Shown here in pieces: positions 23,762 through 50,763 of a stretch of DNA of 64,000 bases (positions within the stretch are counted from its first letter, which is position 1; the number at the start of each line of letters is the position of its first letter). Under the pieces are notes generated by a model. That model had not been told where the DNA came from. It searched no databases and saw only the letters and a program-made list of their open reading frames with translations. The DNA comes from Microbulbifer sp. (GTDB lineage: Bacteria; Pseudomonadota; Gammaproteobacteria; Pseudomonadales; Cellvibrionaceae), in assembly GCF_036563125.1 (NCBI RefSeq), contig NZ_DATCMV010000179.1, positions 1,418 to 65,417 on the forward strand. Reading direction: 5' to 3'. Position numbers and translations under genes: made by a program.

Positions 23762-23762
23762 C

Positions 23763-24617: not shown

Positions 24618-25136
24618 ATGTACAGAATTCTGATGGCCGCCGTTCTGTTGATGCTGGCGGCGGTGTCCAATGCGCAAGAGGCCAGTCAGGTAAGTCGCGA
24701 AGAAATCCGTGGCCTCGACGAGCAGATTCAGGATGTGAAGAAAGATGTAATCAGTCTTACGTCCGAACTCAATCGTCTTGAAGAAAAACTGCTGTTCCCT
24801 TCCAACACGCAAGTGGCCCTGTTTGTCTCGCTGCCCGACAGCAGCGAGTTCAGCCTGGAATCCATCGAGATCAAGCTCGACAACCAGATTGTCGCCCACC
24901 ATCTCTACACCTACCGTGAAATCGAAGCCCTGCAGCTGGGCGGTGTACAGCGAATTCATACCGCCAATGTGCAGACCGGCGCGCATCCCCTGGAAGTGAC
25001 CTATTTCGGGAAGTCCAAATCCGGCAAAGAGTATCGCGCGACCGCCAGCTACAGCGTTGACAAGGCCGTGGGGCCCAAATTCGTTGAGATCCAGATTGCC
25101 GGCAACCAGTCCGCTATCAACTTCAAGGACTGGTAA
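24618..25136 (+). CDS. Secreted coiled-coil/beta protein, first gene of the Agl-Glt-like operon
   Basis: Signal peptide (AAVSNA); coiled coil LDEQIQDVKKDVISL..EL.RLEEKLLFP; then a beta-rich domain; tightly linked to the TPR genes. Confidence 0.7.
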   Translation: MYRILMAAVLLMLAAVSNAQEASQVSREEIRGLDEQIQDVKKDVISLTSELNRLEEKLLFPSNTQVALFVSLPDSSEFSLESIEIKLDNQIVAHHLYTYREIEALQLGGVQRIHTANVQTGAHPLEVTYFGKSKSGKEYRATASYSVDKAVGPKFVEIQIAGNQSAINFKDW

Positions 25137-25138
25137 GC

Positions 25139-27220
25139 ATGAATTCACGTCTGGCCAGTGCGATTGCCGGTGCAGCGCTGACTGCGCTGTGCGCCGTTGC
25201 TGTGCAGGCCAAAGCCCCTGTCGATCCCGATCCCGAGGCGCTTCACACCGAAAAGCTGCGCGATCTGTTTTTCGGTGAGGCGCTATTCAATGCGCATCAG
25301 GATAAGTATTTCGACGCGATCACCGAGCTGGATACTGAGCTCAAACAGTTTCGCCTGCTGGATGACCCGGAACTGGATCCGTTCAGTTTGCATTTCGGGC
25401 AGGCGGAATTTGCAGTAGGGGATCTGGAGCTTTCCTATCGTATGCACCGGGATGCCGGCCGCGCGATGGAGCAGGTGCTGAAAGGCAATGTGCCGCAGCC
25501 GATCAAAAACGAAGCCGCCTTCCGCCTGGCCAAGATTCACTATCATAAGCAACAGTTTGCCGATGCCCTGCATGCACTCGAATTGATCGAGGGACGGGTA
25601 CCCGAGCGTGTGCGTGCAGATGAACAGTTCCTGCGTGCACGGGTTTACATGCAGCTGGGGCGCTTCGAAGAAGCGGTGGCACTGCTGAAAGACCTTAAGG
25701 GTGAGAAGTCCCTGGCAGGCTTTGTGGAGTACAACCTGGGTATCGCACTGCTGAAGGCGGGCTATACAGAAAAGGGTGTGCTGGAGCTGGACGGCCTCGG
25801 GCGCAACGCCGGTAGCGACGATGCCATGGGCGCGCTGCAGGATAAAACCAATCTGCTGCTTGGCTTCCAGTTGATGGAAGCCAAGGAATACGAGCGCGCA
25901 CGTACGTATTTTGACCGCGTTCAACTCTCCGGCCCCTTCTCCAATCAGGCCCTACTGGGGGCCGGCTGGGTGGAAGCGAACGCGGGTCGTTATGATCGCG
26001 CGCTGGTACCCTGGCAGCTGCTGGCCGAGCGCCAGCCCACCAATTCAGCGGTTCAGGAAGCGATGCTCGCGGTGCCCTATGCCTACGGCAAGCTGGATGT
26101 GCACAGTACCGCGGCAGTAAATTACGGCCATGCTCTGGATCTGTTCGGAGCGCAGGTCGACGTGCTGACCCAGTCCATCCAAAGTATCCGCGAAGGCAAG
26201 CTGCTGGAAGCTCTGCGCCGCAAGGAAGCCAGCCAGGTCAAAAACTGGGTGGTGGAACTGCGCAAGCTGCCAGATGCCCCGGAAACCCATTACCTGCTGG
26301 ACCTGATGGCCTCCAACGACTATCAGGAATTCCTGCGCAATTACCAGGATCTGAACGACCTGCTGGAGCGCAACAAAGATTGGCTGCAGAGCCTGGATTC
26401 CTTTGAGGAAATCATTGCGCTGCGGCGCGGTTACTACGAGCCGATTCTGCCGGGGCTGGATGTGCAGTTCCGCCAGGTCGACGCCCGCATCAAGATGCGT
26501 CTGGAGCAGCGCCAGCGCCTTGCTGCCCGTATCGAGAACCTGCTGATAAATCGCCGTCCGGAACTGCTGGCCAAAAGCGACGAGACTGAATCCCGTCTGA
26601 TCCTGCAGCAGATTCGCGAAATCCTTGCCTATAACCCCAGCCTCAACAGCGAAGAGACCGAGGCGCGCGTCGCCCGTCTCGAAGGGGTGCTGAAGTTTCA
26701 ACTGTCTCGCGAGTTCGATGAGCGCCTGACAGAAGCCTACAAGCACCTGCAGGAGCTGGATATCGTCGTCGCCACCCTGCAGGAAACCTACCAGCGCTAC
26801 GTACGCAGTCGTCAGGCCGCCACCCACAGCTATGAAGGGTATGCCGACCAGATTGCCAGCCTGCGCGGCGGCCTCAATCGCGCCCAGGATCGCATCGACC
26901 AGTTGATGGCGCGCCAGGGACGCATGCTCGAGCAGTTGGCGATTAACGAGCTGGATCAGCGCCGTTCCCAGTTGGAGAGCTACCAGATCAAGGCCCGATT
27001 TGCCCTGGCCGACAGTTACGACCGCGCCAATGAGTTGCAGGAGCAGCGCGCCGATGCCCGCAAGGTTGAGCAGTACCAGCAGCAGGTAGAGGGACTGAAA
27101 CAGTCGGAGCCGGAAGAATCTGAGCCTGCGGTAAACCCGGATGGTGAACCGCTGCCCACGGACAATCCGCCAGAACTGGAAGCGCCAGAGCAAGAGATGG
27201 AATCCGCCAGCGATGAATAA
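25139..27220 (+). CDS. Periplasmic TPR and coiled-coil protein (GltC-like position)
   Basis: Signal peptide; repeated TPR helices (AAFRLAKIHY..QQF..AL, YNLGIALLKAG); C-terminal coiled coils ending ARFALADSYDRA. Confidence 0.75.
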   Translation: MNSRLASAIAGAALTALCAVAVQAKAPVDPDPEALHTEKLRDLFFGEALFNAHQDKYFDAITELDTELKQFRLLDDPELDPFSLHFGQAEFAVGDLELSYRMHRDAGRAMEQVLKGNVPQPIKNEAAFRLAKIHYHKQQFADALHALELIEGRVPERVRADEQFLRARVYMQLGRFEEAVALLKDLKGEKSLAGFVEYNLGIALLKAGYTEKGVLELDGLGRNAGSDDAMGALQDKTNLLLGFQLMEAKEYERARTYFDRVQLSGPFSNQALLGAGWVEANAGRYDRALVPWQLLAERQPTNSAVQEAMLAVPYAYGKLDVHSTAAVNYGHALDLFGAQVDVLTQSIQSIREGKLLEALRRKEASQVKNWVVELRKLPDAPETHYLLDLMASNDYQEFLRNYQDLNDLLERNKDWLQSLDSFEEIIALRRGYYEPILPGLDVQFRQVDARIKMRLEQRQRLAARIENLLINRRPELLAKSDETESRLILQQIREILAYNPSLNSEETEARVARLEGVLKFQLSREFDERLTEAYKHLQELDIVVATLQETYQRYVRSRQAATHSYEGYADQIASLRGGLNRAQDRIDQLMARQGRMLEQLAINELDQRRSQLESYQIKARFALADSYDRANELQEQRADARKVEQYQQQVEGLKQSEPEESEPAVNPDGEPLPTDNPPELEAPEQEMESASDE

Positions 27221-30200
27221 GCGGCCTATGTACAAAAAGCGGCTCTGCCTGCCCGTGAATACCCTAAGCCTGGTGACTGTGGCCTCTGCCGCATTGTTGC
27301 TCAGTGCCTGTGCCAGCAACAGTGGCAATACCATCGGCAGCCTGCAGAAGGTCGATATCAAGATTCAGGAAACCCACATCGATGGCAGCCTGGAAAAAGC
27401 GCTGGCGAGTTACCAAAAATACCTGCAGGAAACCCCGGAAACCGCACTCACCCCGGAAGCCATCCGGCGTATCGCCGACCTGAAAATCAAGCAGGCGCAC
27501 CGTGCGGAAGAGGGCATACTGCCGCGCAACACCGAAACCCGCATTCTGTCGGACGCGGATGTCGCGGCGGCAAATCAGCTCGCGAGCAAAAAGACAACGG
27601 CGGCGCGCGCCGACCTGGATGCACCGCAAGTTACCGGTATAGTCGCCAGCGCGAACACTTCTGAAGCTGCTCTTGGCAGCGTTGCGAATTCCAACGCAGA
27701 GAGCCAGTCCGACTTCGAGTCCCGCGCCAGTGGCGCTGTGGACCTGAGCGGGTTGGAGAGTGGTGCCGATGCTGGCGATAATCCTGACGCACTGCTCGCT
27801 GCCAACGCGCGCGAAGCCATCGAGCTGTATAAAAAACTGCTGGTGCAGTATCCGCAGTACGAGCGCAATGACCAGGTCATGTACCAGCTCTCCCGGGCCT
27901 ACGAGGAGACCGGCGAGATAGAAGAGGCCGTCGTGGTCCTGCGCCAGCTGGTAGCCAAGTACCCCGCGTCCCGCCATCTGGACGAGTCCTATTTTCGCCT
28001 CGGTGAATACTACTTCACCCGCAAGAAGTATCTCGATGCGGAAGAGTCCTATGGCCGTGTTGTCGACATGGGAGAGGGCTCAAGTTTCTACGAACTGGCG
28101 GTCTATAAACGTGGCTGGGCACTGTTCAAGCAGGATATGTACGAGATGGCGCTCGACGATTTCGTGCGCATGCTCGATTACAAGGTGGACCAGGGCTACG
28201 ATTTCGAACAGCAGACCAACGAGACCGAACGCAAGCATATCGAGGATACTTTCCGCGTTATCAGCCTGAGCTTCTCCTATCTCGGTGGTGCGGAATCCAT
28301 TGTGGAATACTTTACCCAGAAGGGTGCGCGGGACTATGAGTCCTACGTGTACAGTCACCTGGGTGAGTACTATCTCGACAAGCGCCGCTATCAGGATGCC
28401 GCGGAGTCCTACAACGCCTTTGTGGCGCGCAACCCGCTGCACAAGGTAGCTCCCGACTTCTCCATCCGCGTAATCGAAATCTACCAGAAGGGCGGGTTCC
28501 CGCGGCTGGTGCTGGATGCCAAAAAAGCCTTCGCCAATACCTACGCCCTCGATGCGCAGTACTGGACCGTGTTCGATATTCAGGAATACTCCACCGTGGT
28601 GGAATTCCTGCAGACCAACCTGATCGACCTGGCCAGCCACTACCACGCCGCTTACCAGAACGTGAAGCCCAAGGATGAAGAGTTCGCCAAGAAGCGGAGC
28701 GAAAATTACCTCGAGGCCATTCACTGGTACCGCCGTTATCTCGGCTCTTTTGCGGATAAACCCAAGGCGCCGGAAATCAACTACCAGCTCGCCGGCCTGA
28801 TGCTGGAAAACAAGGATTTCCTCAATGCCGCAGTCGAGTACGAGCGCACTGCGTACAATTACCGAGGTCACGCCACCAACGAAAATGCCAGCGAGGCGGG
28901 GTACGCTGCGGTATTCGCCTACCGCGAACACCTGAAAATCGACCTTGCCAATGGTCGTACCGCGGAGAAGACAGCGGTACAGAAGGAAATTATCCGTTCG
29001 TCCCTCACCTTTGCGGAAACCTTCCCGCAGCACAGCAAGGCCCCGCAGATCCTGCTGGGTGCCGTGGACGATCTGTACAAACTGAAGAGTTACCCGGAGG
29101 CCATCCAGAATGGCCGCATGTTGCTGGAGAAGTTCCCGGCGGCGGACCAGCAGATCATTCGCTCCGCGTGGATTCTTGTGGCCCACGCCTCGTTTGACAC
29201 CGAGCTCTATGCCGATGCCGAAACCGGCTATCGCCAGGCACTGAATCTGACCGCGGTCGATGCCAAGGACCGCCCCGATCTGGTAGACAACCTGGCCGGT
29301 GCCATTTACCAACAGGGCGACCAGGCGCGCAAAGCCGAAGACCATCTGGCTGCTGCGGAGCATTTCCTGCGTATCCGCAATGCCGCCCCCGGTGCGAGTA
29401 TTCTTGCCACTGCCGAGTACGACGCTGCGGCGTCCCTGATCCAATTGGAAAACTGGGCTCGTGCGGCCGATGTGCTAAAGGCTTTCCGCAGCAATCACCC
29501 GCAGCACGAGCTACAAAAGGAAGTCACCAAAAAGCTTGCGGTGGTATACCAGGAGAGCGGCCAACTGTTGCTGGCTGCGGCCGAGTTCGAGCGTATCGAG
29601 CGCGAATCGGAAGACGACGATGTGCGGCGCGAAGCGCTCACCCAGGCCGCGGATCTGTACAGCGCAGCCAAGAGTTACGACAAGGCGCTGGCGGCCCTCA
29701 ATCGCTATGTCCAGTTGTTCCCGCGCCCCATGGAGCCCGCATTGGAGACTCGGCAGAAAATTGCTGATATCTACCTCAACAGTGGCAACCAGAAGGCCTA
29801 CTTCAATACCCTGGATGAGATGGTGCGTATCGAGCTGCGTGGCGGCAACGAGCGCAATGACCGCACTCGCTACCTCGCGGGTAATGCCGCGCTCAAGCTG
29901 GCCGAGCCCAAGTTCGAGTCATTTGCGGAAATCGCCCTGGTCGCGCCATTGGAGCAAAATCTGAATACCAAGCGCACCCGCATGCAGGCCGCTACCAGCG
30001 CATTTACCGACCTGATCGATTATCAGGTGGCCGACGTCACTGCCGCGGCGACTTACTACCTTGGTGAGATCTATCTCCACTTCAGCCAAGCCCTGAAGGA
30101 ATCCGAACGCCCGACCAACCTCGACGCGGTGGAATTGGAGGATTACGAGCTGGCGTTGGAAGAGCAGATCTATCCGTTCGAAGAGCGCGCCATCTCCGTA

Positions 30201-30515
30201 CATGAGAAAAACATCAGTCTGATGGTCGCGGGCATTTACAACAACTGGGTGGCGAAGAGTATCGACCAGCTCGCGGGTCTGGTGCCCGCAAGATATGAGC
30301 GCCCGGAGGATGCCGACAATATCGTCATGACCATAGTGCCGGTACCGCAAACCCCGGATGAGTCGATCCCAGCACAACAGGTGGTGGAGCAGCAGGTGCC
30401 GGAAAGCATCGCTCCTGCGCCCGCAGAGTCCAGCAGTGAGCCAGCAGGGCAACCTGAGTCGCAAGCGCCGGAAACCATCATTGCTGAAAATGAATCCGAG
30501 GAGGACCAGGGGTGA
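27213..30515 (+). CDS. Large TPR lipoprotein, about 1100 aa (GltD/AgmU-like)
   Basis: Lipobox LLLSAC; numerous TPRs (DQVMYQLSRAYE, FRLGEYYF, YK.GWALFK, YYLGEIY); start overlaps the upstream stop. Confidence 0.75.
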   Translation: MNKRPMYKKRLCLPVNTLSLVTVASAALLLSACASNSGNTIGSLQKVDIKIQETHIDGSLEKALASYQKYLQETPETALTPEAIRRIADLKIKQAHRAEEGILPRNTETRILSDADVAAANQLASKKTTAARADLDAPQVTGIVASANTSEAALGSVANSNAESQSDFESRASGAVDLSGLESGADAGDNPDALLAANAREAIELYKKLLVQYPQYERNDQVMYQLSRAYEETGEIEEAVVVLRQLVAKYPASRHLDESYFRLGEYYFTRKKYLDAEESYGRVVDMGEGSSFYELAVYKRGWALFKQDMYEMALDDFVRMLDYKVDQGYDFEQQTNETERKHIEDTFRVISLSFSYLGGAESIVEYFTQKGARDYESYVYSHLGEYYLDKRRYQDAAESYNAFVARNPLHKVAPDFSIRVIEIYQKGGFPRLVLDAKKAFANTYALDAQYWTVFDIQEYSTVVEFLQTNLIDLASHYHAAYQNVKPKDEEFAKKRSENYLEAIHWYRRYLGSFADKPKAPEINYQLAGLMLENKDFLNAAVEYERTAYNYRGHATNENASEAGYAAVFAYREHLKIDLANGRTAEKTAVQKEIIRSSLTFAETFPQHSKAPQILLGAVDDLYKLKSYPEAIQNGRMLLEKFPAADQQIIRSAWILVAHASFDTELYADAETGYRQALNLTAVDAKDRPDLVDNLAGAIYQQGDQARKAEDHLAAAEHFLRIRNAAPGASILATAEYDAAASLIQLENWARAADVLKAFRSNHPQHELQKEVTKKLAVVYQESGQLLLAAAEFERIERESEDDDVRREALTQAADLYSAAKSYDKALAALNRYVQLFPRPMEPALETRQKIADIYLNSGNQKAYFNTLDEMVRIELRGGNERNDRTRYLAGNAALKLAEPKFESFAEIALVAPLEQNLNTKRTRMQAATSAFTDLIDYQVADVTAAATYYLGEIYLHFSQALKESERPTNLDAVELEDYELALEEQIYPFEERAISVHEKNISLMVAGIYNNWVAKSIDQLAGLVPARYERPEDADNIVMTIVPVPQTPDESIPAQQVVEQQVPESIAPAPAESSSEPAGQPESQAPETIIAENESEEDQG

Positions 30516-31111
30516 TGAACCATATCCTCACTCGCGGAAATCTACTGCGTGTATCTGTCGGTGCGCTATTGCTGTTGCTTGGCGCCTGTGCCAGTGGTCC
30601 GCAAACTTCAAACCGTCCGGTCGACCCCATGAGCGTAAAAGTTTCTGGCAGTGTCAACCGCGACTTCCTGCAGGCAGTGGAATACCTGCAGGGCGAACGA
30701 TACCCGGAAGCCGTCGAGTTGCTGTTGAGCGTAGTCGAGCGCGAACAGCGCCTTTCTGCGCCCTACGTCAATCTCGGTATCGCCTATTACAAAACTGGCG
30801 ATGAAAAGCACGCAGAGGAAGCTTTCCTGCAGGCGCTGCGTGCGGCGCCCCTGGATCCGGTAGCCAGCAACGAACTCGCTGTTCTCTACCGCCGCCAGGG
30901 CCGTTTCGATGAAGCCAAAAAGACCTACGCGGAATCGCTACGACTGCACCCAGAAAATCTGCCACTGATCAAAAATCTGGGTATCCTGTGCGACCTCTAC
31001 CTTCAGGATGTGAATTGTGCACTCGCACAATTCGAACAGTACCTGAAATATCAACCTGAAGATGCCAAGGTTGCCATCTGGGTAACGGACCTCAAACGGA
31101 GAGCCAACTGA
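30515..31111 (+). CDS. Small TPR lipoprotein (GltE/AglT-like)
   Basis: Lipobox LLLGAC; PYVNLGIAYY, NELAVLYRRQGRFDEA, NLGILCDLYL; TGATG coupling. Confidence 0.75.
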   Translation: MNHILTRGNLLRVSVGALLLLLGACASGPQTSNRPVDPMSVKVSGSVNRDFLQAVEYLQGERYPEAVELLLSVVEREQRLSAPYVNLGIAYYKTGDEKHAEEAFLQALRAAPLDPVASNELAVLYRRQGRFDEAKKTYAESLRLHPENLPLIKNLGILCDLYLQDVNCALAQFEQYLKYQPEDAKVAIWVTDLKRRAN

Positions 31112-31419: not shown

Positions 31420-31509
31420 TTTAATTTTTAACCAAAAAACGACCGCTAAGGTCAAAACCAGGCAAAGCGGAAAAAGCCGCGGACCCGAGAAAGAAAACCA
31501 AGAGGGCAA

Positions 31510-32292
31510 ATGATGGATTTCTTGAACAGCGTAATCGCGTTTTTTCAGACTGGTGGTGCATTTATGTACCCCATTCTGGTGGTATTCGCGCTCGGTGCTG
31601 CGGTAGCGATCGAACGCTATATCCGCCTCGTCTACGAGCGCCACACCAACCGTGCCGCCTGGGAAAAGCTGCAGCCGGTGCTCAACACTGGCGACTTTGA
31701 CCGCGCGCGTAATCTCGTCAAGGACGACAACACCGGTGTGGGCCGCCTGCTCGCCATGGGTCTCGAGCGTCAGGGCGCCGTACGTCGTCGCGAGGACATC
31801 GAAATCGCGATGGAAGAAAGCATCATGGAGACCATTCCACAACTGGAGAAGCGCACCCCCTACGTGGCACTCGGCTCCAACATCGCTACCCTTCTCGGTC
31901 TGCTCGGTACCATCATGGGCCTTATTGAAGCCTTTACCGCGGTAGCCAACGCCAACCCAGCGGAAAAAGCCGACCTGCTTTCCGCCAGTATCTCTGTGGC
32001 TATGAACACTACCGCTTTCGGCCTGATGGTGGGTATTGCGCTGTTGATCGTACATGCACTGCTCAACTCCCTCACCGGCCAGATCGTCGACAGTCTGGAA
32101 ATGGTGTCCGTCAAGGCGCTCAACATCATGTCTTCCGGTACCCGTCGCCGCAGCGACGCAGCACAGGATGAGCAAACCACCGTAGCGGAAAAGCCCGTAA
32201 ACCGCGATGTGCAGCAGACTCAGCAGGCACAGAAGAAGGCGGATTCTGTGGCAGCTGGCACCGATAAAAATTCCAAACCGGAAACTGTGTAA
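31510..32292 (+). CDS. MotA/TolQ/ExbB proton-channel protein (AglR-like)
   Basis: GGAFMYPI; ATLLGLLGTIMGLIEAF; ISVAMNTTAFGLMVGI. Confidence 0.9.
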   Translation: MMDFLNSVIAFFQTGGAFMYPILVVFALGAAVAIERYIRLVYERHTNRAAWEKLQPVLNTGDFDRARNLVKDDNTGVGRLLAMGLERQGAVRRREDIEIAMEESIMETIPQLEKRTPYVALGSNIATLLGLLGTIMGLIEAFTAVANANPAEKADLLSASISVAMNTTAFGLMVGIALLIVHALLNSLTGQIVDSLEMVSVKALNIMSSGTRRRSDAAQDEQTTVAEKPVNRDVQQTQQAQKKADSVAAGTDKNSKPETV

Positions 32293-32882
32293 TGAGAAAC
32301 AGGCGTCACAGCAGATCCAAAGAAGCGCCGGAGCTGGACATCACCGCCTTCCTCAATCTGATGGTGGTCCTGGTGCCATTCCTGCTGGTATCCGCAGTGT
32401 TTTCCCGGGTGACCATTCTCGAGCTCAATATGCCCACTGGAGCCGGTGGTGGAGCGGACGATCCTGGTGTGACACTGGAAGTTGTAGTGCGCAAAGACGT
32501 GCTGGAGATCAGTGACGGCAGCAAAGTCGTGGCGCGCTTCCCCAACCTGAATCGGGAAGAAGGCGACGAAGTTGCTGAGGCGCAAACTGAAGTACCGCTC
32601 GACGAATACGGAAAGCCTATTATCCCGCCGACGGCGGAGGTGTACGACCTGGCGCAGCTGCGCGAGTACCTGATCCGGATCAAGCAGACTTACCCGGACA
32701 AATCCGACTCCACATTGCTGATGGAGCCGGAGGTGGCCTACGAGCACTTGGTAGGCGTGATGGATACTGTGCGTAGCGCCAATGTCATGCCGACGCCGGA
32801 AGAGGGGGCTGTGCTGGAGCCGGATGCAAAGCCTGAAACAATGGAACTCTTTCCCGATATTTCCCTGGGAGACGCGCCGTGA
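32292..32882 (+). CDS. ExbD/TolR-family protein 1 (AglQ-like), with Asn in place of the TM Asp
   Basis: ELDITAFLNLMVVLVPFLL TM segment; periplasmic ExbD domain ...YEHLVGVMDTVR...LFPDISL. Confidence 0.85.
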   Translation: MRNRRHSRSKEAPELDITAFLNLMVVLVPFLLVSAVFSRVTILELNMPTGAGGGADDPGVTLEVVVRKDVLEISDGSKVVARFPNLNREEGDEVAEAQTEVPLDEYGKPIIPPTAEVYDLAQLREYLIRIKQTYPDKSDSTLLMEPEVAYEHLVGVMDTVRSANVMPTPEEGAVLEPDAKPETMELFPDISLGDAP

Positions 32883-33454: not shown

Positions 33455-33463
33455 TGAGCGTTT

Positions 33464-34837: not shown

Positions 34838-34852
34838 CCGGCGCAAGTAAAA

Positions 34853-34890
34853 GCAACCGCTCGGGCATTAGCCCGGGCGGTTGCGCTTTT
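34853..34890 (+). terminator. Rho-independent terminator ending the motor operon
   Basis: GCAACCGCTCGGGC-ATTA-GCCCGGGCGGTTGC followed by GCTTTT. Confidence 0.8.
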
Positions 34891-34980: not shown

Positions 34981-35095
34981 GCCCTGTTCCCTTCATATCG
35001 TTAGAGTCGCATCACCGGGCAGTGTGTGTACGGTTTAGGTGCTCAAGAGCTTCGTATCCGGAGCTTTAAACCCGAATTGCGGCAGAAAACTAACA

Positions 35096-44000: not shown

Positions 44001-45649
44001 ACACCAATGGTCCGCAGCAGATCCGCGATATCTATATCGCCTCCGGCAGCAACCCGCAGAACCTGAATCTGCCGATTACACCAAACGGGGTGATCTACGA
44101 TTCGGTACTGCGCGCGCCGGTCAACGGGGCCCGTGTACGCTTGCTGGGTGCGTCCAGTGGCCAGCCGCTGCCGGACAGCTGTTTTGATGATCCCAAGCAG
44201 CAGAACCAGGTCACCCTCACCGGCGGCTTCTACAAGTTCGATGTGAACTTCAGCAGTGCGGCCTGTGCGGTAAATGCGGATTACCTGATCGAAGTGGACG
44301 TGCCGAGCGCAGATTACGTCTCCGGCCCGTCGCAGATCATTCCGCCGCAGACTGGCGTGGATACCGGCAGTTTCGATGTGGCCGCGTGCCTTGGCAGTGC
44401 CGCGGACAGGATCCCGGGCACGCCGGACCACTGTGAGGTGCAGCTGTCAGTAGCGCCGCCCTCCATTGACCTGGATGCGCGCAGCAGCGAAACCGATTAC
44501 TACCTGCGTGTAAACCTCGATGACAGCAACCAGCCGGGCAGCAGCCAGCTGTTCAACAACCACATTGCGCTGGACCCGCAACTGGAAGGCGCGCTCGCGC
44601 TGACCAAAACTGCGGCCATGTTGAATGTGACCCGCAGCCAGCTGGTGCCCTACACAATCACCTTCAGCAACTCGCTGCCGGTGCCGCTCACGGATCTGCA
44701 GCTGGTGGATTACTTCCCCGCGGGCTTCAAGTATGTGGCCGGTTCCGCGAACCTGGATGGCGAACCGGTAGAGCCGGTGGTAAACGGCCTGCAACTGCAG
44801 TGGCCGCACCTGCGCGCCGAGGCGGAGCAGACCCACAGCATGAAACTGCTGCTGGTGGTGGGCTCCGGTGTGGGCGAGGGCGAGTACATCAACCGCGCGC
44901 GCATGTTCAACGAACTCTCCGGCCAGCAGACGTCCGGCGAGGCGTCGGCCACCGTGCGCGTGGTACCGGACCCGACCTTCGACTGTACCGATGTGATCGG
45001 CAAGGTGTTCGACGATAAAAACCTGAACGGTTACCAGGACGCGGGTGAGGGCGGCGTGCCGGGAGCGCGTGTGGTCACCGCCAACGGTCTCAAGGCCACC
45101 GCCGATGCACACGGTCGTTTCCATATCACCTGTGCGGCGGTGCCTAACCCGGATCGCGGTTCCAACTTCGTGCTGAAACTGGACGACCGCAGCCTGCCGA
45201 GCGGCTACCGCCTGACCACGGAAAACCCGCGGGTGCAGCGCGCGACCCGAGGCAAGATGCTGGAGTTCAATTTCGGTACCAGCCTGCACCGTGTCGTGCG
45301 TCTGGATCTGGCGGAAGCGGTCTTCGAACCCGGTACCAGCGAGTTGCGTCCGCAGTGGCATTCGCGCACCGAACTCTTACTGGAGCGACTGCAGGAGGCA
45401 CCGTCGGTGCTGCGCCTGTCCTACCTGGCGGAAAACGAAGATCCGTCGCTGGTAGACGAGCGCCTTGCGACGATCAAGGCCCGCATCGCCGAGGACTGGG
45501 CGGCACTGAACTGCTGCTACCCGCTCAATATCGAAACCGAAATTTTCTGGCGCCGTGGCGCGCCGCCCGAGCGTGGCAATGTGCTGGACGGGCTCAAACG
45601 CAGTGTTAACCGCATGATCGGAAGTGATGATCAGGGAGGCGCCCGGTGA
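35096..45649 (+). CDS. Giant (~3500 aa) secreted DUF11/isopeptide-repeat adhesin-like protein with SdrD-B-like and degenerate OmpA-like C-terminal domains
   Basis: Extended signal peptide ending AQMAVA; about 18 repeats of the form L..(T/S)K...GD.L.YT(L/I).V.N.G...A.D....D.LP; two SdrD-B-like segments (SGYLWHDVD..., IGKVFDDKNLNGYQDAGEGGVPGARV); C-terminal VFEPGTSELRPQW. Confidence 0.85.
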   Translation: MMSDVNGLNSSKANLEGLAKRSEFKALRKLGNLLLAVFLSFAFAQMAVAASFKTTDFATDSTPPGSPGNPSGCLIDGPYATTTDGSNRTMAPADQLSIDRSCTVKNFSCDVPLESTLNFAGVPSGTLIIFDNVCFGGNFACANVEGKASVWAVNGSDFSTVREGCQNLVIPVEKIEKQATDLAGSPITSVSIGVPFVYTLDIPVLFDPVTGTVLQDSGSLNNIQAITIQDDLSAAALGVDLDLLDVRLFYEDTSGATTPMSPAAYSYSNSGNPNSPGVLTFQINDPSILPAGAQIHIELEVVLDNTALNSIGKSFTNTATWEFGRYIDGTFYDPLPGENGVAQLLSISAPDLLLTKTTDATAINFADTPTYTINVQNVGGSPAWNIEIEDLLPVGMRESDPVLQSVTMGGVTLTEGTHFTASYNSGAGAGAGLLTIKLLNDAGALAPNAVLEIIYTSQLDDVSSSTAPVDGDVLSNVAAATAWYNDLSTNNDRIEYTGVRSDGTPGTDDEQDVATVTAALSGYYFEKTVSNVTTGQSPTASAAPGDRLRYRLRLFNLDENIYNVTITDQLDASSFDFSSAQVVAGTCPTGASCTFNAAGLLTVTGDLDVVPGSALSSIAVEFEVNTLSSLNTNDVVSNQARMDAQDADTSGTAFFALSDDPNDAYGVVNQADPQGNPINPTDIVIISPGALDKQNPSGITQVAIGELFEYTILIPATTVPAPLYDVQVSDQLPSNLDLVSANALVNGTSYTLSNTGSANSLVLVEPITGLDIPANQQAEVTVQVRLKNRMENQDTVQFTNTASYTYSRTQGGAQSSGAGTADTTAPLTVVEPNLVATSSVVNSSRGGSTAYGGDVLQYTVALTNNGTSTAYDLSIINTLSAGQTLVPGSAQITLGGIASAVAPGVSGDVLSWGRSSGQELDIPVGGTLTLVYQVEVSGVDGGDLTNSIAADWTSLDGSDVEERTGNDAPDTSALNNYFIADELAMPSVDNAAIVKTVISDTWNGDITPAAQTTARAGDTITYQLTLTLPEGLNSNVVVTDLLDPGLAFVDVVSINGAATAPYAAAGVFSYSDIPAANVPAADQTGTLSWNLGDVTNAPDQNPANDEFVIVYRARVQHGAGDNPAATPTSTVLNNQATLGYTYASGAAATTAPATASVEVLQPQINELTKTGVVLPASGAIVGDGQSAATAYLVDIASNSMQFSLQACNVGDAPAYGVTLHDDLPAELDEGTLNNVAVAIDGAALGAADFSYTAPAARDGEMQFTLNVALAPSSCVTIDYNIGFYTDIAPNQVWSNAASVEAYWSRESLDAADAREYVAINPVTSDSVWMTNNFQVEAPSKTVSKTQATIGEEVVYTITVPGTPVNGVLSGVTVTDTLSQALQYVDATVQLNGAPLAVTTTQSGQDLSWAIGDIPAGQQAVITVTTWVANTQNVSASATPVGNVAAYTYQAGGVAVDGGSSAPAEFTVVEPDLSVVKAVANLSDPGQPAATGDVLEYTLTITNNGDATAFDTNIADVLPAELSYVDGSSSAQIDGSALVGFNATPSISGNTLTWGRDNGDNSVVIPAGSVLVLTYQTDVNTITAADIVNSALVDWTSLSGTYTGDRERTGAGCPSVTPPNIYCSGDTSGFGVDYDIDLQKTRQTDSWNDDGNLRVGDTVDYQLKLDLVEGTHNGLVLEDTLPQGMAFVGVLSADFFGTAATTPPAPSVSADQRTITWDLGTVTNPVDGDDTNDFVTITYRARVLNGDALAQQPTTQALNNVVTLNYLVGSAPGAPLTTGATVNALQPFLTVSKSAVTAINGDTVIQSGEAATYTVDITNTGNAPAYDVVLEDVLPVGLRNAGVSMQSATLVNAGTSITLTPTFDPATGTVTWDFDPAANAAIPAGDTLRVVYQVTGDADLGAGLTLTNSAQVTRYFSFDNDQVPANSAVDWREDYGPSAVATFNLTTPVPGVLSKATTQSTVAIGEQLTYTLTVPEVPADVALQDVRIMDNLSATGVDLAFVSATVVGGNALTNSGTADNLVLSDTSGGLDIPAGAQVEVQVTVEVLNTANNQNRTDPFVNRAWYDYSNGVTRLGDDPATGGDANAVTIVHAELVVEKTGPATIKVGTPENFTLTVLNNSSASAWNVTLTDWLPNPDPGGLCDVQPVIQSAAIQKAGGASIALNASDFAVSFVAGTPTCEFSATLQSDDELAPGDQLIVVYQVALDGDNINDTTLTNIAGATQWFSASAATSERFAYQRTLTDGTPGVVDHEDSHTFTVQSAILEIRKSVLNVTTGQSGANASPGDQLRYSIEIQNVSDVALDAFVLRDELDRLNAKAMFQTGSLRDVSVPAGATASVIGDGGAQGSGLLEVTGLAIAKAGDAGDTITVVFDVDLVPVITSGTVVLNQAQLSMSDVVFASSDDPLVGGIEDPTQTLIHSAPWLKIQKTSQDLTGDADMLAPGDSLRYTLTVENTGSEDAINTVLRDLVPGNTTYVANSTTLNGVQIADVSGSTALASGISIQTPGAESGFVGAAAEGAAPVVITFDVVINDVNDGTLISNQGFANGDGAGSGAFAERPSDDPATSAVDDPTIDIVGDVPLLVVTKTVELAVDNMTVGIVDPEDVLRYTISVTNMGGKDASEARLVDLVPADTTYVANSTKLNGLDVADAAGGSPLAGGLAISSDDLTPPLPATGEGVITSAQTATIVFDVMVNADTARGTIISNQGSVSSVELPLTLTDADGNSSNGAQPTEVVVGDAQQLSITKEVAVVGGGDAESGKVLEYLVRVTNISSVPASLILIQDDLLTAGDGVLTYVADSARVNGQAGGVSVNGSLITVDYSTNYGDLQPGEFLTLRFQARLGPNLAIGTTVVNTAQVQWNDPAMYNEASVSIDIGGTPGIANLSGYLWHDVDFSETADTNELLLSNWTVQLYFNNALLETAQSDANGYFQFGGLVPNMDGANMAGASYELRYLAPNAVGTTASLGTASSDYTNGPQQIRDIYIASGSNPQNLNLPITPNGVIYDSVLRAPVNGARVRLLGASSGQPLPDSCFDDPKQQNQVTLTGGFYKFDVNFSSAACAVNADYLIEVDVPSADYVSGPSQIIPPQTGVDTGSFDVAACLGSAADRIPGTPDHCEVQLSVAPPSIDLDARSSETDYYLRVNLDDSNQPGSSQLFNNHIALDPQLEGALALTKTAAMLNVTRSQLVPYTITFSNSLPVPLTDLQLVDYFPAGFKYVAGSANLDGEPVEPVVNGLQLQWPHLRAEAEQTHSMKLLLVVGSGVGEGEYINRARMFNELSGQQTSGEASATVRVVPDPTFDCTDVIGKVFDDKNLNGYQDAGEGGVPGARVVTANGLKATADAHGRFHITCAAVPNPDRGSNFVLKLDDRSLPSGYRLTTENPRVQRATRGKMLEFNFGTSLHRVVRLDLAEAVFEPGTSELRPQWHSRTELLLERLQEAPSVLRLSYLAENEDPSLVDERLATIKARIAEDWAALNCCYPLNIETEIFWRRGAPPERGNVLDGLKRSVNRMIGSDDQGGAR

Positions 45650-48600
45650 TGTTTCGCCCGTCTAAAAATAAATTAGCAATCGTAATGGTCGCGCTGGCGA
45701 GTGCTTCGGCGCTCGCCCAGGAAGAAAGCCAGGGCGATATTTCCTGGTGGCAAAAAATCCCCGGCCTCTCGCCGCAGATCGAAACTACCGGCGATTACAC
45801 CGACAAACCACTGGGCAGCAACACCGAAACCACCCTGATCCCAACGGCCGGCCAGCTGTGGGTACAGGATGCGGAATCGTTTGTCTCCCCGGAGGAAGCG
45901 GTGCTGGAAAACAATGCGCTGCCGCCGCTGCTATACCGCGAGGTGGGCGATGATATTGATCCGACACTGATCGAACAGCTGCGGGAAAGGCTCGCGGCCC
46001 TGAGCGGCGCCCACGAGCTGCAGCTGATTTTCACCGGTCACACCGACAGCGATCCGCTGAGCGAGGACCAGCAAGCGGAGTACGCGGATAAAGCCGCGTT
46101 TACCGAGGCGCGCGCCAAGTTGGTGGCGGAGTACTTCCAGACTGCGCTGGAACTGCCGGATGAGGCGATTGTGGTAGCGGGCCGCGGTGACGGCGAACCG
46201 CTGACCGAAAACATCACCGAAAAAGGTCGCGAACTGAACCGCCGGGTGGAACTGACGCTGCGCTATTTCGAGCAGGATCAGCAAGCCCGCGACGCCCAGC
46301 GCCGCGCTGAGGCGCTGCAGCTCAACCGGGTCAAGGTCTGCCGCCAGGAAACCGTGTGTAAGCTGCGCTACAGCGCGGGCACGGACCAGCGCGCGCGCCT
46401 GAAAAACCTGGTGTCGCCGCTGCGTCTGCAGCCGGGGCAGGTGGACCTGCCGGCGCCATTTGTGCGCCGTATCCTGGAGGTCCGCAACACCCTGCTGGAA
46501 AAACCCAATCTCACCATTCACTTCGTCGGTCACACCGATGGCGCGCCGCTGCCGGAAGGTCCGGCGGAGCTGTATGACGATCAGATGGCACTGTCGCGCG
46601 CGGAAGCGCGACGGGTGGCACTGGCAGTTGCGGATCAGCTGAACCTGCCGGCTTATATGGTTACCAGTAGCGGTAAAGGCGCGAGCCAGCCCATCGCGGC
46701 CAACGACACCGCCAAAGGCCGTTCCCTGAACCGCCGCGTGGAAGTGGAGTTCTGGTACGACGATTTGCTGGAAACCGCCGCCGACGGCGTGCAGGCGTGT
46801 CCGGAATCCGCTGTGGCGGAAACTATCACCATCGCCCACGAATCGCCCACCGGCGACGTGCCGCCGATTTTCCTGAATGACGGCGAGCCGCAAATTTCCG
46901 GTTCACAGCTGGCGCAGATGCAGCGCCTGATGGAAGAGGTGGCGGGCAAGCAGAACGTGCGCCTGAGTTTTGTCGGCTACAGCGATAACGAGCGCATGGA
47001 GCGCCGCGAAGCCATGGTCTACGGCGACGATGTGGGGCTGTCGTCTGCACGTGCGAAAAAGACCATGCAAGTGGTGCAGCAGCAGCTCGGCCTGGACGAT
47101 ACCCAGGTGGAGTTTGAGGGGCGCGGTTATGTAGAGTCCAAGGATGTGGTGCAGACCGGGTTTATCCACATGGACGGCGCGCGCGTGGAAGTGCAGGTGC
47201 TGTACGACGAGCTGGCGGTGCTGGCGGAGCAGGACCGGCTGGAAATCGAGCGGCTGCAGCAGGAGGCCCAGGCCCACAACCCCTACGCCCTCAACCTGAT
47301 GCGCATCACCGTGGACGGTGCCCCGGAATACGATCCGTACAAGAATTCCGCAGACCTGCAGCGCTGTACCGACGTAGCCCTGGAAAATGCCAATATCCAG
47401 TTCCGCTTTGACAACCAGTCGATGCAACCGCGACTCAACGTCACTGCCTTCCCCAGCACCATCCGCTACGCGGACGATCCGGAAACGGAGCTGGTGGAGA
47501 GCCGCGTGCAGTTCAAGCGTTACACCAACTACCCCTCGTTTATCACCCGCGCGGAAGTGCGTATTTTCGAGGAAGAGCAATCCCTGCGCGACACACCGCT
47601 GGCGGTGGTCACCCTGGACCAGAACGGCGAGGGCAGCTGGGAGGCGGAATTCGACAGCTTCCAGGCGCCACTGAAAAAGCTGAAATACGTGTTGCGGGTA
47701 TACGACTGGAAACAGCGTTTCGATGAAACCCGTCCGCAGACCCTGTGGCTTGTGGATAACTTCGAACCGCAGTTACAGGAAGACACCACCGAAAAAGAAC
47801 TGTTGGTGGGCTATGGCGAAAACCGCCTGTCCGAGCAGCATATTCCCGTGAGCGGCAATGCGGTGCTGGTGAACGGTGCGGATATTCCGGCAAACCACAG
47901 TGTGTGGCTGGCGGGCCGCGAAATTCCCGTGAGCAGCAACGGTGATTTCGTTGCCGAGGAAATTTTTGCCAAGGGCCTGCACACCGTGGAAGTGGCGGTA
48001 CTGGACGAGCAGGGCAACGGTGAACTGTTCCTGCGGGATCTGGAGTTCAATCGCGACGACTGGTTCAGTGTGGGGATCGCCGATGTCACCATCGCCCGCG
48101 ATGACACCAATGGCCCCGCGGCGCTGGTTACCGGTGATCAGACCCACTACGACAATTCCGCGAGCTACGACGGTCGCCTGGCGTTTTACACCAGCGGCAG
48201 CTTTGGTGATGGCTGGCGCCTGTCCGCCAGCGCGGACACCGAAGAAGGGCCCATCGACGACCTGTTCAGCAACTTTATGGAAAAAACGCCGGACGCCCTG
48301 TTCCGCCGTCTGGACAGCGATCTCTATTACCCGACCTTTGGCGACGATTCCACGGTGGTGGAAGATGCCCCGACCTCCGGCAAGTTTTTCATCAAACTGG
48401 AAAACTACGACGATTACGGCCTGTGGGGTAACTTCAAGGCGTCCTATACCGACAACGAACTGGCGCATATCGACCGCGCGCTGTACGGGGCCAATTTCCA
48501 TTTCGAGACCGACGATGTCACCGACTTCGGCGACAAGCGTTTCGAAATAGACGCCTTCAGTGCGGAGCCCGGCACCATCGCCGGTCGCGATGAGTATCTG

Positions 48601-50763
48601 GGCACCGGTGGCTCCCTCTATTACCTGCGCCACCAGGATATCCTCACCGGCTCCGAGCGCCTGCGTGTGGAAGTGCGGGACAAGAACTCCGGCCTGGTGC
48701 TGGGAGTGAAAAACCTCACCCCGGTGATCGATTACGATGTGGATTACATCCAGGGGCGCGTGTTGCTGAACCGCCCGCTGTCCGCCATCGCCAACGACAA
48801 CCTGATCGTGCAGGACGGCTCCTACAACGGCAATCCACAGTACCTGGTGGCCCGCTACGAATACACCCCGGGCTTTGACGATCTCGACACCCTGGCCCTC
48901 GGTGGTCGCGCCCAGTACTGGGCCGGTGAACATGTGCGTATCGGTGTGAGTGCGAGCCAGCAGGATGAGGAAGACAACGAATCGTCACTCAACGGCGTCG
49001 ATCTGACGCTGCGCAAGAGCGCCGGTACCTGGATGAAAGTGGAAGTGGCGGAAAGCCAGGGCAATACCCTGGAAAGCCTGTCTTCCCTGGACGGCGGTTA
49101 CAGCTTTAACCAGGACAATCCGATCGATCCGAATGCCAAGGCCGGTGCCAACAAGGTTGAAGCCGCGATCCAGATGGGGGATTTCTTCGAGGGCGCGCGC
49201 GGTTCCATGTCCGTCTATGCGCAGCAGCGGGATGCGGGCTTCTCCGCACCGGGCCAGCTGGCGACCTACGATACCGAGCAGTACGGCGCGGTGGTTAACC
49301 TGCCCATCGGCGAGCGTTTCGATGTGGGCCTGAAAATGGACACCAAGGAACAGCAGCAGGGCCTGCAGACCTCCGCCACCGATGTGGAGCTGGGCTACCG
49401 CCTGAGCGAGCGCTGGCGCCTCGCCGCCGCCGCCCGCTCCGACTCCCGCGAGGATATGTCACCGGTGGTGCCGGTCACCCAGAAACAGGGCGATCGTACC
49501 GATGTAGCAATCCAGGCCGGTTACGATTCCGGTGCCAACTGGAACGCGTTCGGTTTCGTGCAGCGTACCGCAGAGTTGTCCGGTAACCGCGATGAAAACA
49601 ATCGCGTCGGATTTGGCGGAGCCTACCGCGTCAGCGATCGCCTGACCGTGGACAGCGAGCTTTCCGGTGGCGACACCGGCAACGCGGCGCGTGTCGGCAC
49701 CGACTTCCTGGTGACCGACCGCACCAACCTGTATCTGAATTACACCCTCGACAACGAGCGCACCGATACCGGTGTGCGCGCGCGCAAGGGCAATCTGAAC
49801 AGTGGCTTCCGCAGTCGCTTCTCCGATACCACCAGTATTTACGGCGAAGAGCGCTATACCCACGGCGATGTATCCACCGGCCTTACCCACGCACTTGGCG
49901 TCGATCTGGCACCCAGTGACACCTGGAATTACGGTACGTCCCTTGAGGCGGGTACCCTCGAGGACCCGCGCACCGGTGCCGAAACCGAGCGCCGCGCCGT
50001 GGGCGCCAGCATGGGCTTCAACGACGGCGACCTGCGCGTGTCGAGCGCGGTGGAATACCGCGTCGACAATATGCAGACGCTGACCGACCCGGAAACTGTA
50101 CTCGAAAATGAGCGCAAAACCTGGCTGCTGAAAAATGCCCTGAGCTTCCAGATCAGCCCGGATTGGCGCTTGGTTGGCAAGCTCAATTATTCCGACAGCC
50201 AGAGTTCCGCCGGGCAGTTCTACGACGGCAAATACACCGAGGGCGTGATGGGGTATGCCTACCGTCCGGTGGAGAACGACCGCTGGAATACACTGCTGAA
50301 GTACACCTACTTCTACAATGTGCCCACCACCGACCAGGTGCTGGTGACCTCCAGCAGCGCCAGCAGTGCGGTGGAGTTTGTGCAGAAGAGTCATATCTTC
50401 TCGGTGGACACCAACTATGACCTGACCCAGCGCTGGACGCTCGGCGCCAAGTACGCCTACCGCCTGGGACAGTTGAGCATGGAGCGTGAAAACCCCGAGT
50501 TCTTTGACAGTAACGCGCACCTGTATGTGATGCGTGCCGACTGGCACTTCGTGAATAAATGGGATTTGTTGGTGGAGGGCCGCGTGCTCGACCTGCCGGA
50601 AGCGGGCGACCGCAGAAGCGGCGCGCTGCTGGCGCTGTATCGCCAGATGGGAAATCACTTCAAGGCGGGTATCGGTTATAACTTTACCGATTTCTCCGAC
50701 GACCTGACGGATCTGGATTACGACAGCCAGGGTGTCTTCATTAACATGGTCGGCAAATTTTAA
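45649..50763 (+). CDS. Outer-membrane protein: three OmpA-like peptidoglycan-binding domains plus a very large C-terminal beta-barrel
   Basis: Signal peptide; GHTD...GRGD.EP...NRRVEL, GHTD...GKG..QP...NRRVEV and GYSD... OmpA-like motifs; about 900 aa of amphipathic strands ending VFINMVGKF (terminal Phe); TGATG coupling to the adhesin. Confidence 0.82.
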   Translation: MFRPSKNKLAIVMVALASASALAQEESQGDISWWQKIPGLSPQIETTGDYTDKPLGSNTETTLIPTAGQLWVQDAESFVSPEEAVLENNALPPLLYREVGDDIDPTLIEQLRERLAALSGAHELQLIFTGHTDSDPLSEDQQAEYADKAAFTEARAKLVAEYFQTALELPDEAIVVAGRGDGEPLTENITEKGRELNRRVELTLRYFEQDQQARDAQRRAEALQLNRVKVCRQETVCKLRYSAGTDQRARLKNLVSPLRLQPGQVDLPAPFVRRILEVRNTLLEKPNLTIHFVGHTDGAPLPEGPAELYDDQMALSRAEARRVALAVADQLNLPAYMVTSSGKGASQPIAANDTAKGRSLNRRVEVEFWYDDLLETAADGVQACPESAVAETITIAHESPTGDVPPIFLNDGEPQISGSQLAQMQRLMEEVAGKQNVRLSFVGYSDNERMERREAMVYGDDVGLSSARAKKTMQVVQQQLGLDDTQVEFEGRGYVESKDVVQTGFIHMDGARVEVQVLYDELAVLAEQDRLEIERLQQEAQAHNPYALNLMRITVDGAPEYDPYKNSADLQRCTDVALENANIQFRFDNQSMQPRLNVTAFPSTIRYADDPETELVESRVQFKRYTNYPSFITRAEVRIFEEEQSLRDTPLAVVTLDQNGEGSWEAEFDSFQAPLKKLKYVLRVYDWKQRFDETRPQTLWLVDNFEPQLQEDTTEKELLVGYGENRLSEQHIPVSGNAVLVNGADIPANHSVWLAGREIPVSSNGDFVAEEIFAKGLHTVEVAVLDEQGNGELFLRDLEFNRDDWFSVGIADVTIARDDTNGPAALVTGDQTHYDNSASYDGRLAFYTSGSFGDGWRLSASADTEEGPIDDLFSNFMEKTPDALFRRLDSDLYYPTFGDDSTVVEDAPTSGKFFIKLENYDDYGLWGNFKASYTDNELAHIDRALYGANFHFETDDVTDFGDKRFEIDAFSAEPGTIAGRDEYLGTGGSLYYLRHQDILTGSERLRVEVRDKNSGLVLGVKNLTPVIDYDVDYIQGRVLLNRPLSAIANDNLIVQDGSYNGNPQYLVARYEYTPGFDDLDTLALGGRAQYWAGEHVRIGVSASQQDEEDNESSLNGVDLTLRKSAGTWMKVEVAESQGNTLESLSSLDGGYSFNQDNPIDPNAKAGANKVEAAIQMGDFFEGARGSMSVYAQQRDAGFSAPGQLATYDTEQYGAVVNLPIGERFDVGLKMDTKEQQQGLQTSATDVELGYRLSERWRLAAAARSDSREDMSPVVPVTQKQGDRTDVAIQAGYDSGANWNAFGFVQRTAELSGNRDENNRVGFGGAYRVSDRLTVDSELSGGDTGNAARVGTDFLVTDRTNLYLNYTLDNERTDTGVRARKGNLNSGFRSRFSDTTSIYGEERYTHGDVSTGLTHALGVDLAPSDTWNYGTSLEAGTLEDPRTGAETERRAVGASMGFNDGDLRVSSAVEYRVDNMQTLTDPETVLENERKTWLLKNALSFQISPDWRLVGKLNYSDSQSSAGQFYDGKYTEGVMGYAYRPVENDRWNTLLKYTYFYNVPTTDQVLVTSSSASSAVEFVQKSHIFSVDTNYDLTQRWTLGAKYAYRLGQLSMERENPEFFDSNAHLYVMRADWHFVNKWDLLVEGRVLDLPEAGDRRSGALLALYRQMGNHFKAGIGYNFTDFSDDLTDLDYDSQGVFINMVGKF

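Follow-up and report, generated by a model that had tools for sequence, protein, structure and literature searches.

A core complex consisting of aglR, aglQ, aglS, gltC, gltD, gltE and gltG, together with one extra gene, was defined by Luciano et al. in 2011 (PMC3169522). In Gammaproteobacteria, Geobacter and Fibrobacter its genes were found as a cluster, some genomes having paralogues as well, and its function in these organisms was stated to be unknown. The same study identified the core complex of non-gliding Proteobacteria as the ancestor of the Agl-Glt and Agl-Nfs systems of Myxococcus xanthus, and inferred frequent horizontal transfer. The non-gliding role of the complex has been open since that definition, and its outer-membrane target holds the key to the evolution of a motility machine from a Tol-like motor. 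Here we describe a stretch of 64,000 nucleotides from Microbulbifer sp. (assembly GCF_036563125.1, contig NZ_DATCMV010000179.1, positions 1,418 to 65,417 of the forward strand; 'the window' in the following), which derives from an assembly of 3.8 Mb in 195 contigs. According to the list of open reading frames (ORFs), a block of 26 kb in this window (24618-50763) comprises eleven genes that are all co-oriented on the plus strand. Nine of these (g01-g09) form a motor operon of the core-complex kind, and the remaining two encode a giant repeat adhesin (g10) and a very large outer-membrane barrel protein (g11). A comparison across genomes supports the view that the motor operon and the adhesin/barrel pair belong together as one conserved unit and do not adjoin by chance. 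This linkage points to the job of the motor in non-gliding bacteria.

Judged from its sequence, the motor operon belongs to the Glt core complexes, where the assignment is positive for the motor genes and the GltG domain and positional for the tetratricopeptide repeat (TPR) proteins. Like the described complexes, the cluster contains one ExbB/TolQ-type and two ExbD/TolR-type genes, and a GltG-type transducer that has a transmembrane helix, a Pro-rich linker and an AgmX/PglI domain. Moreover, it is a single cluster in a gammaproteobacterium, and paralogous copies occur in one genome. Three TPR proteins and two small secreted proteins are encoded in the expected positions, the sole specific match among them being that of g04 to GltE (NF033758, 35 bits against a cut-off of 225). 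The difference lies at the outer membrane: the 2011 paper names no partner there, whereas the long-form subtype described here is tied to an adhesin and to a barrel with three OmpA-like modules.

A related machine has been studied in Myxococcus. GltG was found to bind AglR (PMC3169522). AglR5QS binds GltG and GltG wraps GltD (PMC9946355), while GltD and GltC, together with GltF, have been modelled as a bridge that reaches the outer-membrane barrels GltA/B at their periplasmic N-termini; these barrels hold the adhesin CglB (PMC11761067, PMC9946355). The Microbulbifer block would follow the same logic, in which a TolQR-like proton motor is connected through GltG and a TPR shaft to an adhesin-holding barrel (PMC9946355, PMC11761067). 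Nevertheless, it is not Agl-Glt proper. The GltG equivalog scored 59 bits against a cut-off of 650 and GltJ 24 against 450, and nothing resembling the Myxococcus Group A parts (GltA/B/H/K, GltI/J, CglB) was present among the eleven genes or their neighbours. In Myxococcus the barrels GltA/B/H are small and the adhesin CglB is a VWA lipoprotein, whereas the block encodes an OmpA barrel with about 33 predicted strands and a DUF11 fibre of 3500 residues; the barrels and adhesins of the two systems are unrelated in sequence and size. The block also differs in having no cytoplasmic platform (AglZ, MglA, GltI). Our literature search yielded no report of gliding in Microbulbifer.

Within the genus, homologues of GltG and of the barrel are found on the same strand at a distance of 9-16.5 kb in 23 out of 24 genomes. 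This observation alone says little, because these genomes are closely related. We have searched an even draw of 400 Gammaproteobacteria for both proteins. A long-form GltG, i.e. one with a cytoplasmic domain, was recovered from five of them, the very five genomes that also gave the best barrel hits. In four of the five, representing four other gammaproteobacterial families, GltG and the barrel are encoded on the same strand 9-16 kb apart; all eleven genes are collinear (36-70% identity) and the moa genes that flank the block in the window are not conserved. In the fifth family both genes are located at contig ends, which splits the block into halves. A short-form GltG (310-370 residues, without the cytoplasmic domain) was encoded in about 70 of the 400 genomes and never adjoined a barrel. 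In fact, the genome of the window itself holds a second core complex of this short form with the same nine-gene layout (C29:4486-10948 and C153:167-2984). Its GltG counts 334 residues and lacks the cytoplasmic domain, and the cluster is followed by two paralogous LuxR-type regulators (C153:3188-4995), with no adhesin or barrel.

The linkage extends well beyond these families. When 185,579 species genomes were scanned with an alignment of the long-form GltG, more than 569 relatives were recovered, and we retained the best 80. Of these, 57 loci extend for 3 kb or more beyond GltG, and in every one the next gene is a giant ORF; it is split by frameshifts in five nanopore metagenome-assembled genomes (MAGs) and preceded by two extra small ORFs in three Microbulbifer loci. 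The original prediction had regarded the motor operon and the adhesin/barrel pair as one unit, and had proposed synteny and congruence of trees as ways to examine this. The results agree with it. The gene order is collinear in the four other families, the giant ORF follows without exception in the set just described, and two further gene orders preserve the association. Two six-taxon trees, one built from the concatenated motor proteins and the other from the barrel, have two well-supported splits in common.

A second scan, seeded with short barrels, gave 80 loci from Alpha-, Beta- and Gammaproteobacteria, Thermodesulfobacteriota, Nitrospirota and other groups. In the tree of the barrel module one fully supported branch divides the proteins into class A, with barrels of about 1700 residues and a triple-OmpA arm, and class B, with barrels of 1180-1550 residues and zero or one OmpA domain in those scanned with Pfam. 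All motor-linked loci are of class A. The order motor-adhesin-barrel is found in Gamma- and Betaproteobacteria, whereas g01-g09 directly follow the barrel gene in 17 class A loci, which belong to Thermodesulfobacteriota, 'delta' MAGs, Nitrospirota and a single alphaproteobacterial MAG. Two more loci, the barrels of which are cut at a contig end, show the same downstream motor order, and in a Piscinibacter MAG the motor operon is situated upstream and is divergent. The tree indicates that the 'downstream' order arose at least two times inside the class A clade, and the linked loci reach barrel identities as low as 44%. In class B, homologues of ExbB, ExbD, GltG or the TPR proteins were encoded in none of 27 loci within 10 kb downstream, and in none of 21 loci with 1-7 kb visible upstream of the adhesin start; clustering of the neighbours of class B loci revealed no other conserved gene either. 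What co-varies with the motor is neither the barrel module nor the docking module of the adhesin but the two additional OmpA-like modules that the barrel protein carries on its periplasmic arm. Because the linkage is confined to the long-form motor and to class A barrels, and holds in three gene orders, the motor and the adhesin-barrel pair are probably parts of one machine.

The adhesin and the barrel themselves are one unit. This conclusion is based on the TGATG that couples the stop of g10 to the start of g11, on natural fusions, and on the strong conservation of the C-terminal 210 residues of the adhesin as opposed to its variable N-terminus. The conserved barrel module, formed by the C-terminal 1106 residues of g11, matched 3476 clusters at 50% identity (993 with E <1e-30) across Proteobacteria, Thermodesulfobacteriota and Nitrospirota, including species of Pseudomonas and Stutzerimonas. 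Some 26 of the best 150 representatives are proteins of 2100-6900 residues with the module at the extreme C-terminus. In the three fusions that were scanned with Pfam, DUF11 repeats are followed by SdrD_B, OmpA and the module, the same order as in g10-g11. Given their domain order, these fusions serve as a Rosetta stone: they indicate a passenger with a barrel of its own, an arrangement that resembles an autotransporter in its logic. The barrel-adhesin module matches no described secretion type in the literature searched. Likewise, full-text searches returned no description of the linkage between core complex, adhesin and barrel, nor of this barrel family.

A comparison with other envelope machineries leads to a similar conclusion: the system is not Agl-Glt, Ton, Tol-Pal, type V secretion or the type IX secretion system (T9SS), because the defining features of each were tested and not found. 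The original prediction had set the motor apart from ordinary Ton uptake and from Tol-Pal as a Glt core complex, and the AgmX/PglI domain of g09 together with the absence of a TonB-dependent receptor, TolB and Pal from the eleven-gene unit (Pfam and NCBIfam) agrees with that view. With respect to Ton uptake, neither Plug nor TonB_dep_Rec was matched in the unit and TonB_C remained below threshold in g09 (20.2 bits against 24.6). The system resembles Tol-Pal in several parts. Both have a TolQR-family motor, a TolA/TonB-like transducer, a YbgF/CpoB-like TPR protein and a target that binds peptidoglycan through OmpA-like domains, and the force-driven mobilisation of a peptidoglycan-binding target is the Tol-Pal paradigm as outlined in PMC8928145. 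The TolQ and YbgF-like matches, however, are sub-threshold (46 bits against 221, and 85.4 against 90.1 for g03), and the block differs in having two unlike ExbD subunits, three large TPR proteins, and an OmpA target that is an integral barrel joined to an adhesin.

The adhesin-barrel module shares with type V secretion a Sec-dependent passenger that has its own barrel, either as a C-terminal fusion or encoded by an adjacent gene, and both forms occur in this family. Nevertheless, Pfam gave no Autotransporter, POTRA or ShlB domains. The module of about 1100 residues has some 33 predicted strands instead of the 12 or 16 of type V, the OmpA modules are located between passenger and barrel, and the passenger has its conserved recognition part at the C-terminus. 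Stator-like proton-driven units that serve giant adhesins have been outlined for the T9SS and gliding machinery of Bacteroidota (GldLM, SprA, SprB) and for SiiAB-SiiE of Salmonella (PMC8986121; bioRxiv 10.1101/641415). The original prediction had drawn a functional parallel to T9SS/SprB, and as an analogy it holds; at the level of components and folds it does not. There are no T9SS components in the block, the only match being that of a TPR protein to PorW (35 bits against 250), the adhesin has no T9SS C-terminal signal and ends in a CnaB-like and an alpha/beta domain, and SprA was absent from the top 50 fold hits. Likewise, the block encodes no ABC, membrane fusion protein or TolC genes of type 1 secretion and no components homologous to SiiAB-SiiE. 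A relative of this kind of system that has been studied experimentally may be found in Fibrobacter succinogenes S85, where the contiguous genes FSU_2396 (OmpA), FSU_2397 and FSU_2398 (TPR) and FSU_2400-FSU_2403 (ExbB, ExbD, ExbD, TonB) are up-regulated on cellulose, and where the FSU_2396 OmpA protein and the FSU_2397 TPR protein were found in a surface adhesion/cellulase complex (PMC6851124).

We tentatively favour, with a confidence that falls a little short of even, a single envelope machine of two modules in which the motor performs mechanical work on the anchored barrel-adhesin complex and does not drive export. The adhesin would be exported by Sec, after which its C-terminal module would dock from the periplasm onto the barrel protein dedicated to it. 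The barrel, with about 33 strands, would then let the repeat fibre through or hold it, so that the fibre is displayed on the surface, and in class B this adhesin-barrel module would work motor-free. The ExbB channel and a plug of an Asn-type and an Asp-type ExbD would make up a proton-driven motor with GltG as TonB/TolA-like transducer, and the three TPR proteins, two of which are putative outer-membrane lipoproteins, may form a periplasmic shaft that reaches the outer-membrane barrels, by analogy with GltC/D/E. Because the extra OmpA modules co-vary with the motor, the latter would work on the class-A-specific periplasmic arm with its three OmpA-like, predicted peptidoglycan-binding modules. 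The complex could thereby be mobilised from the peptidoglycan, as Tol mobilises Pal, or the fibre could be tensioned, moved or exposed, as Agl-Glt handles CglB through GltABHK. What the data show is the gene content, the unity of adhesin and barrel, and a motor linkage that is specific and conserved; which parts touch each other, how they are arranged in the membranes and what work is done are inferred. In a wider perspective it is possible, with still somewhat less confidence, that class A represents an undescribed and widespread proton-powered surface machine in which the ancestral Glt motor mechanically drives a peptidoglycan-anchored giant barrel and its adhesin, the fibre being moved, retracted, tensioned or unmasked. 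It would then be the missing functional precursor of myxobacterial gliding, and the barrel-adhesin module, which comprises thousands of clusters in classes A and B, would constitute a new outer-membrane secretion or anchoring pathway for giant fibres. The existence of a specific conserved partner, an adhesin with a peptidoglycan-tethered giant barrel, would make the question of the non-gliding role directly testable in marine bacteria that are culturable and non-pathogenic, such as Microbulbifer.

The original prediction went further and held that the motor energises the barrel to export, display or move the adhesin, and as a statement on export through the barrel this was not supported. In such an export scheme the motor, via GltG and the TPR shaft, would open or drive the barrel so that folded adhesin domains cross the outer membrane, much like TonB unplugs receptors or GldLM powers T9SS export. 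We regard this as a serious rival, albeit a less probable one. The linkage of motor, adhesin and barrel is equally compatible with it; a barrel of about 33 predicted strands would in principle be wide enough for folded immunoglobulin-like domains, the low-confidence region of about 250 residues that precedes it could be a plug, and a substrate of 3500 residues could need the proton-motive force, there being no ATP in the periplasm. What speaks against it is that class B pairs and fused adhesin-barrel proteins, with the same adhesin and barrel modules, exist with no motor gene within view (for class B in the 27 downstream and 21 upstream regions mentioned above), and export is therefore probably motor-independent. 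In addition, no TonB-box or plug domain was identified and the fold search gave no specific translocon match. The barrel looks self-sufficient for export or anchoring, and a mechanical or regulatory function that the motor adds after export, tied to the triple-OmpA arm, is more likely. A further explanation, to which we assign a clearly lower probability, is that the motor and TPR lipoproteins merely insert or stabilise the large tethered barrel, in a Tol-Pal- or BamD-like fashion, and perform no later work on the adhesin. The TPR units of g03 are just sub-threshold for both YbgF/CpoB (85 against 90 bits) and BamD (66 against 81), and the motor indeed co-varies with the extra OmpA modules and not with the adhesin. 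Yet the barrel module of class B is equally large (about 1100 conserved residues) and motor-free, so that size alone demands no helper, and no BAM/TAM or TolB/Pal components are encoded in the unit.

It is about as improbable as such a helper role that the two modules are related by co-inheritance only, the core complex having an envelope function of its own and the adhesin/barrel pair being a self-contained neighbour that travels with it on a mobile block. The frequent horizontal transfer of the core complex (PMC3169522) and the existence of a short-form complex without an adhesin would fit such a view. Two further points in its favour weigh at the same time against the single machine that we prefer: a strong terminator separates the motor operon from the adhesin operon, and class A is a single clade, so that the linkage could be a single event and the motor association may reflect one ancestral acquisition that was subsequently inherited, instead of many independent ones. 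Other points likewise weigh against the single machine. The assembly with one basal class A barrel (G337, the L109 locus) is 98% complete, and only a short-form motor was found in it, at a distance of 67 kb. Class B might use a distant energiser outside the visible windows. The periplasmic location of the adhesin C-terminus is deduced from the domain order in fusions, the motor-barrel contact is predicted from linkage and analogy, and an OmpA-like fold of the last adhesin domain was not supported by the PDB profile search or by Foldseek. Finally, the strand count and the lumen size of the barrel are approximate, the model being only moderate. The co-inheritance view is itself countered by the persistence of the linkage in at least three gene orders and several phyla down to the low barrel identity given above, by the lack of conservation of the flanking genes, by the fact that a long-form motor was never found without a barrel in the even sample of 400, and by the giant ORF at each of the 57 loci from the best 80 relatives. 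The informative point is that the association was retained through rearrangements and across phyla.

The features of the block are listed in Table 1. The original prediction was correct in every detail that we checked at this level, that is, the eleven co-oriented genes and their domains, the overlaps, the lipoproteins, the terminator and the TGATG coupling.

Table 1. Genes and terminator of the block, with positions in the window
Feature	Position	Strand	Basis
g01, secreted protein with a coiled coil and a beta domain after it	24618-25136	+	Signal peptide, heptad region (sequence)
g02, secreted TPR protein, 693 residues, long C-terminal coiled coil, GltC-like position	25139-27220	+	Pfam TPR_16, TPR_2; signal peptide
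g03, TPR lipoprotein, about 1100 residues, GltD-like position	27213-30515	+	Lipobox LLSAC
g04, small TPR lipoprotein, GltE-like (sub-threshold)	30512-31111	+	Lipobox LLGAC; Pfam TPR_1, TPR_2
g05, small secreted protein, 102 residues	31111-31419	+	Signal peptide
g06, ExbB/TolQ/AglR-type proton channel	31510-32292	+	PF01618 MotA_ExbB, 82 bits
g07, ExbD-type, Asn replaces the transmembrane Asp	32292-32882	+	PF02472
g08, ExbD-type, transmembrane Asp kept	32879-33454	+	PF02472
g09, long-form GltG-like force transducer, 457 residues	33464-34837	+	NF033768 AgmX/PglI, 66.2 bits against a cut-off of 40
Intrinsic terminator at the boundary of motor operon and adhesin operon	34853-34884	+	14-bp stem with 11 G-C pairs, T tract
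g10, giant DUF11 repeat adhesin, 3536 residues	35039-45649	+	Pfam DUF11 x11, DUF7619, SdrD_B
g11, class A barrel protein, 1705 residues	45646-50763	+	Signal peptide, OmpA-like modules, C-terminal barrel

The genes g01-g09 either overlap by 1-8 nucleotides or are separated by gaps of at most 90 nucleotides, with start/stop overlaps at 30512/30515, 31111, 32292 and 32879/32882. The start of g01 was placed at the ATG at 24618 inside the ORF 24594-25136, which yields the signal peptide MYRILMAAV...; the protein has no family match above threshold in Pfam or NCBIfam, and its orthologues are first in the operon in every compared locus, so that g01 may correspond to the 'additional gene' described for Glt core complexes. 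The gene g02 is kept in all long-form motor loci. For g03 the start is likely Met25 of the ORF 27141-30515; the protein contains repeated TPR units and its orthologues are 42-52% identical. No family match was obtained for g05 in Pfam or NCBIfam; its position is conserved in the orthologous loci, with 52-72% identity, and the orthologues of g06 are 55-70% identical.

The adjacent ExbD genes g07 and g08 matched PF02472 with 46 and 56 bits. ExbD, TolR and AglQ carry a proton-binding Asp at the position where g07 has Asn. The motif F(L/M)NLMVV of g07 and the motif LMD(V/I)FTIL of g08 are conserved in all six genomes that were compared (that of the window and five others), and this conserved pairing of an Asn-type with an Asp-type ExbD implies a putative heteromeric plug with a single protonatable Asp. 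The transducer g09 starts with a cytoplasmic coiled-coil domain of about 165 residues, which is followed by one transmembrane helix, a Pro/Lys-rich linker and the AgmX/PglI (TonB-C-like) domain. The extra small ORFs between gltG and the adhesin gene mentioned earlier encode about 425-442 and 295 residues in two of the loci, L015 (4098-6304) and L016 (11541-13696), and about 220 and 331 residues in L029 (8030-9594). The pair of L016, the only one that was scanned, gave no Pfam match.

The start of g10 is the GTG at 35039, with an ATG also present at 35096, and the product has a Sec-type signal peptide followed by at least 11 DUF11 repeats and related immunoglobulin-like domains according to Pfam. 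Its last 210 or so residues are strongly conserved in relatives of both classes, and the N-terminus is not. AlphaFold2 (AF2) modelled this C-terminal module as a CnaB/SdrD-B-like sandwich with a small alpha/beta domain (predicted local distance difference test score, pLDDT, 87.6), and Foldseek related the model to SdrD B domains. A degenerate OmpA domain was considered for the C-terminus and dropped, as a profile search of PDB sequences gave only a marginal match to Omp38 (E 0.88) and the Foldseek top 50 for the high-confidence model contained no OmpA. A large antisense open frame of 1818 residues inside the adhesin gene (38300-43756, minus strand) is most likely no gene but a consequence of the G+C-rich sequence that encodes the repeats.

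The start of g11 is preceded by GGGAGG (45634-45651, including the TGATG). The protein contains three OmpA-like modules, two with GHTD...NRRVE and one degenerate, as well as beta-sandwich domains; two stretches matched Pfam OmpA and three matched TIGR03350, whereas the match to OMP_b-brl was weak. The long, beta-rich C-terminus ends in ...GKF, with a terminal Phe. For residues 520-1705 and an alignment of 31 sequences AF2 gave a moderate model (mean pLDDT 58), in which a low-confidence region of about 250 residues precedes the barrel and the last 620 or so residues form about 33 long strands (pLDDT 70-85). Foldseek returned only generic large barrels (LptD, TonB-dependent transporters, the FimD usher, SlpA) with TM-scores below 0.2, and the C-terminal domain is therefore modelled as a very large barrel without a specific solved relative. 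A SprA-like barrel was not supported, since SprA was not among the top 50. Directly after the signal peptide (45720-45950) class A proteins have a short motif, G-E-N-T-E-x-x-L-P...W-x-Q-D. Its NTE..L..W.QD core was considered as a motor-specific docking box and rejected, class B having a similar N-(T/S/A)-E-(R/Q)-x-L. In Microbulbifer sediminum TT37 (L092/L093, the same as G009:C7:347424-368523) the adhesin-barrel pair is duplicated in tandem, with two identical barrel copies 16 kb apart downstream of one motor operon.

The block is flanked by moaA, a mog-like gene, moaC and moaE on one side (21294-24242) and by a molybdenum hydroxylase, xdhC and a mobA-like gene on the other (50987-55631). 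This molybdenum-cofactor theme is unrelated to the block, which behaves as a movable unit, because such moa-type flanks are not conserved beside it in other families. The nearest TonB-dependent receptor is encoded on the opposite strand 7 kb downstream of the block (58031-60163); together with an adjoining PepSY-TM protein (56788-60163, minus strand) it resembles an ordinary siderophore-type pair outside the unit.

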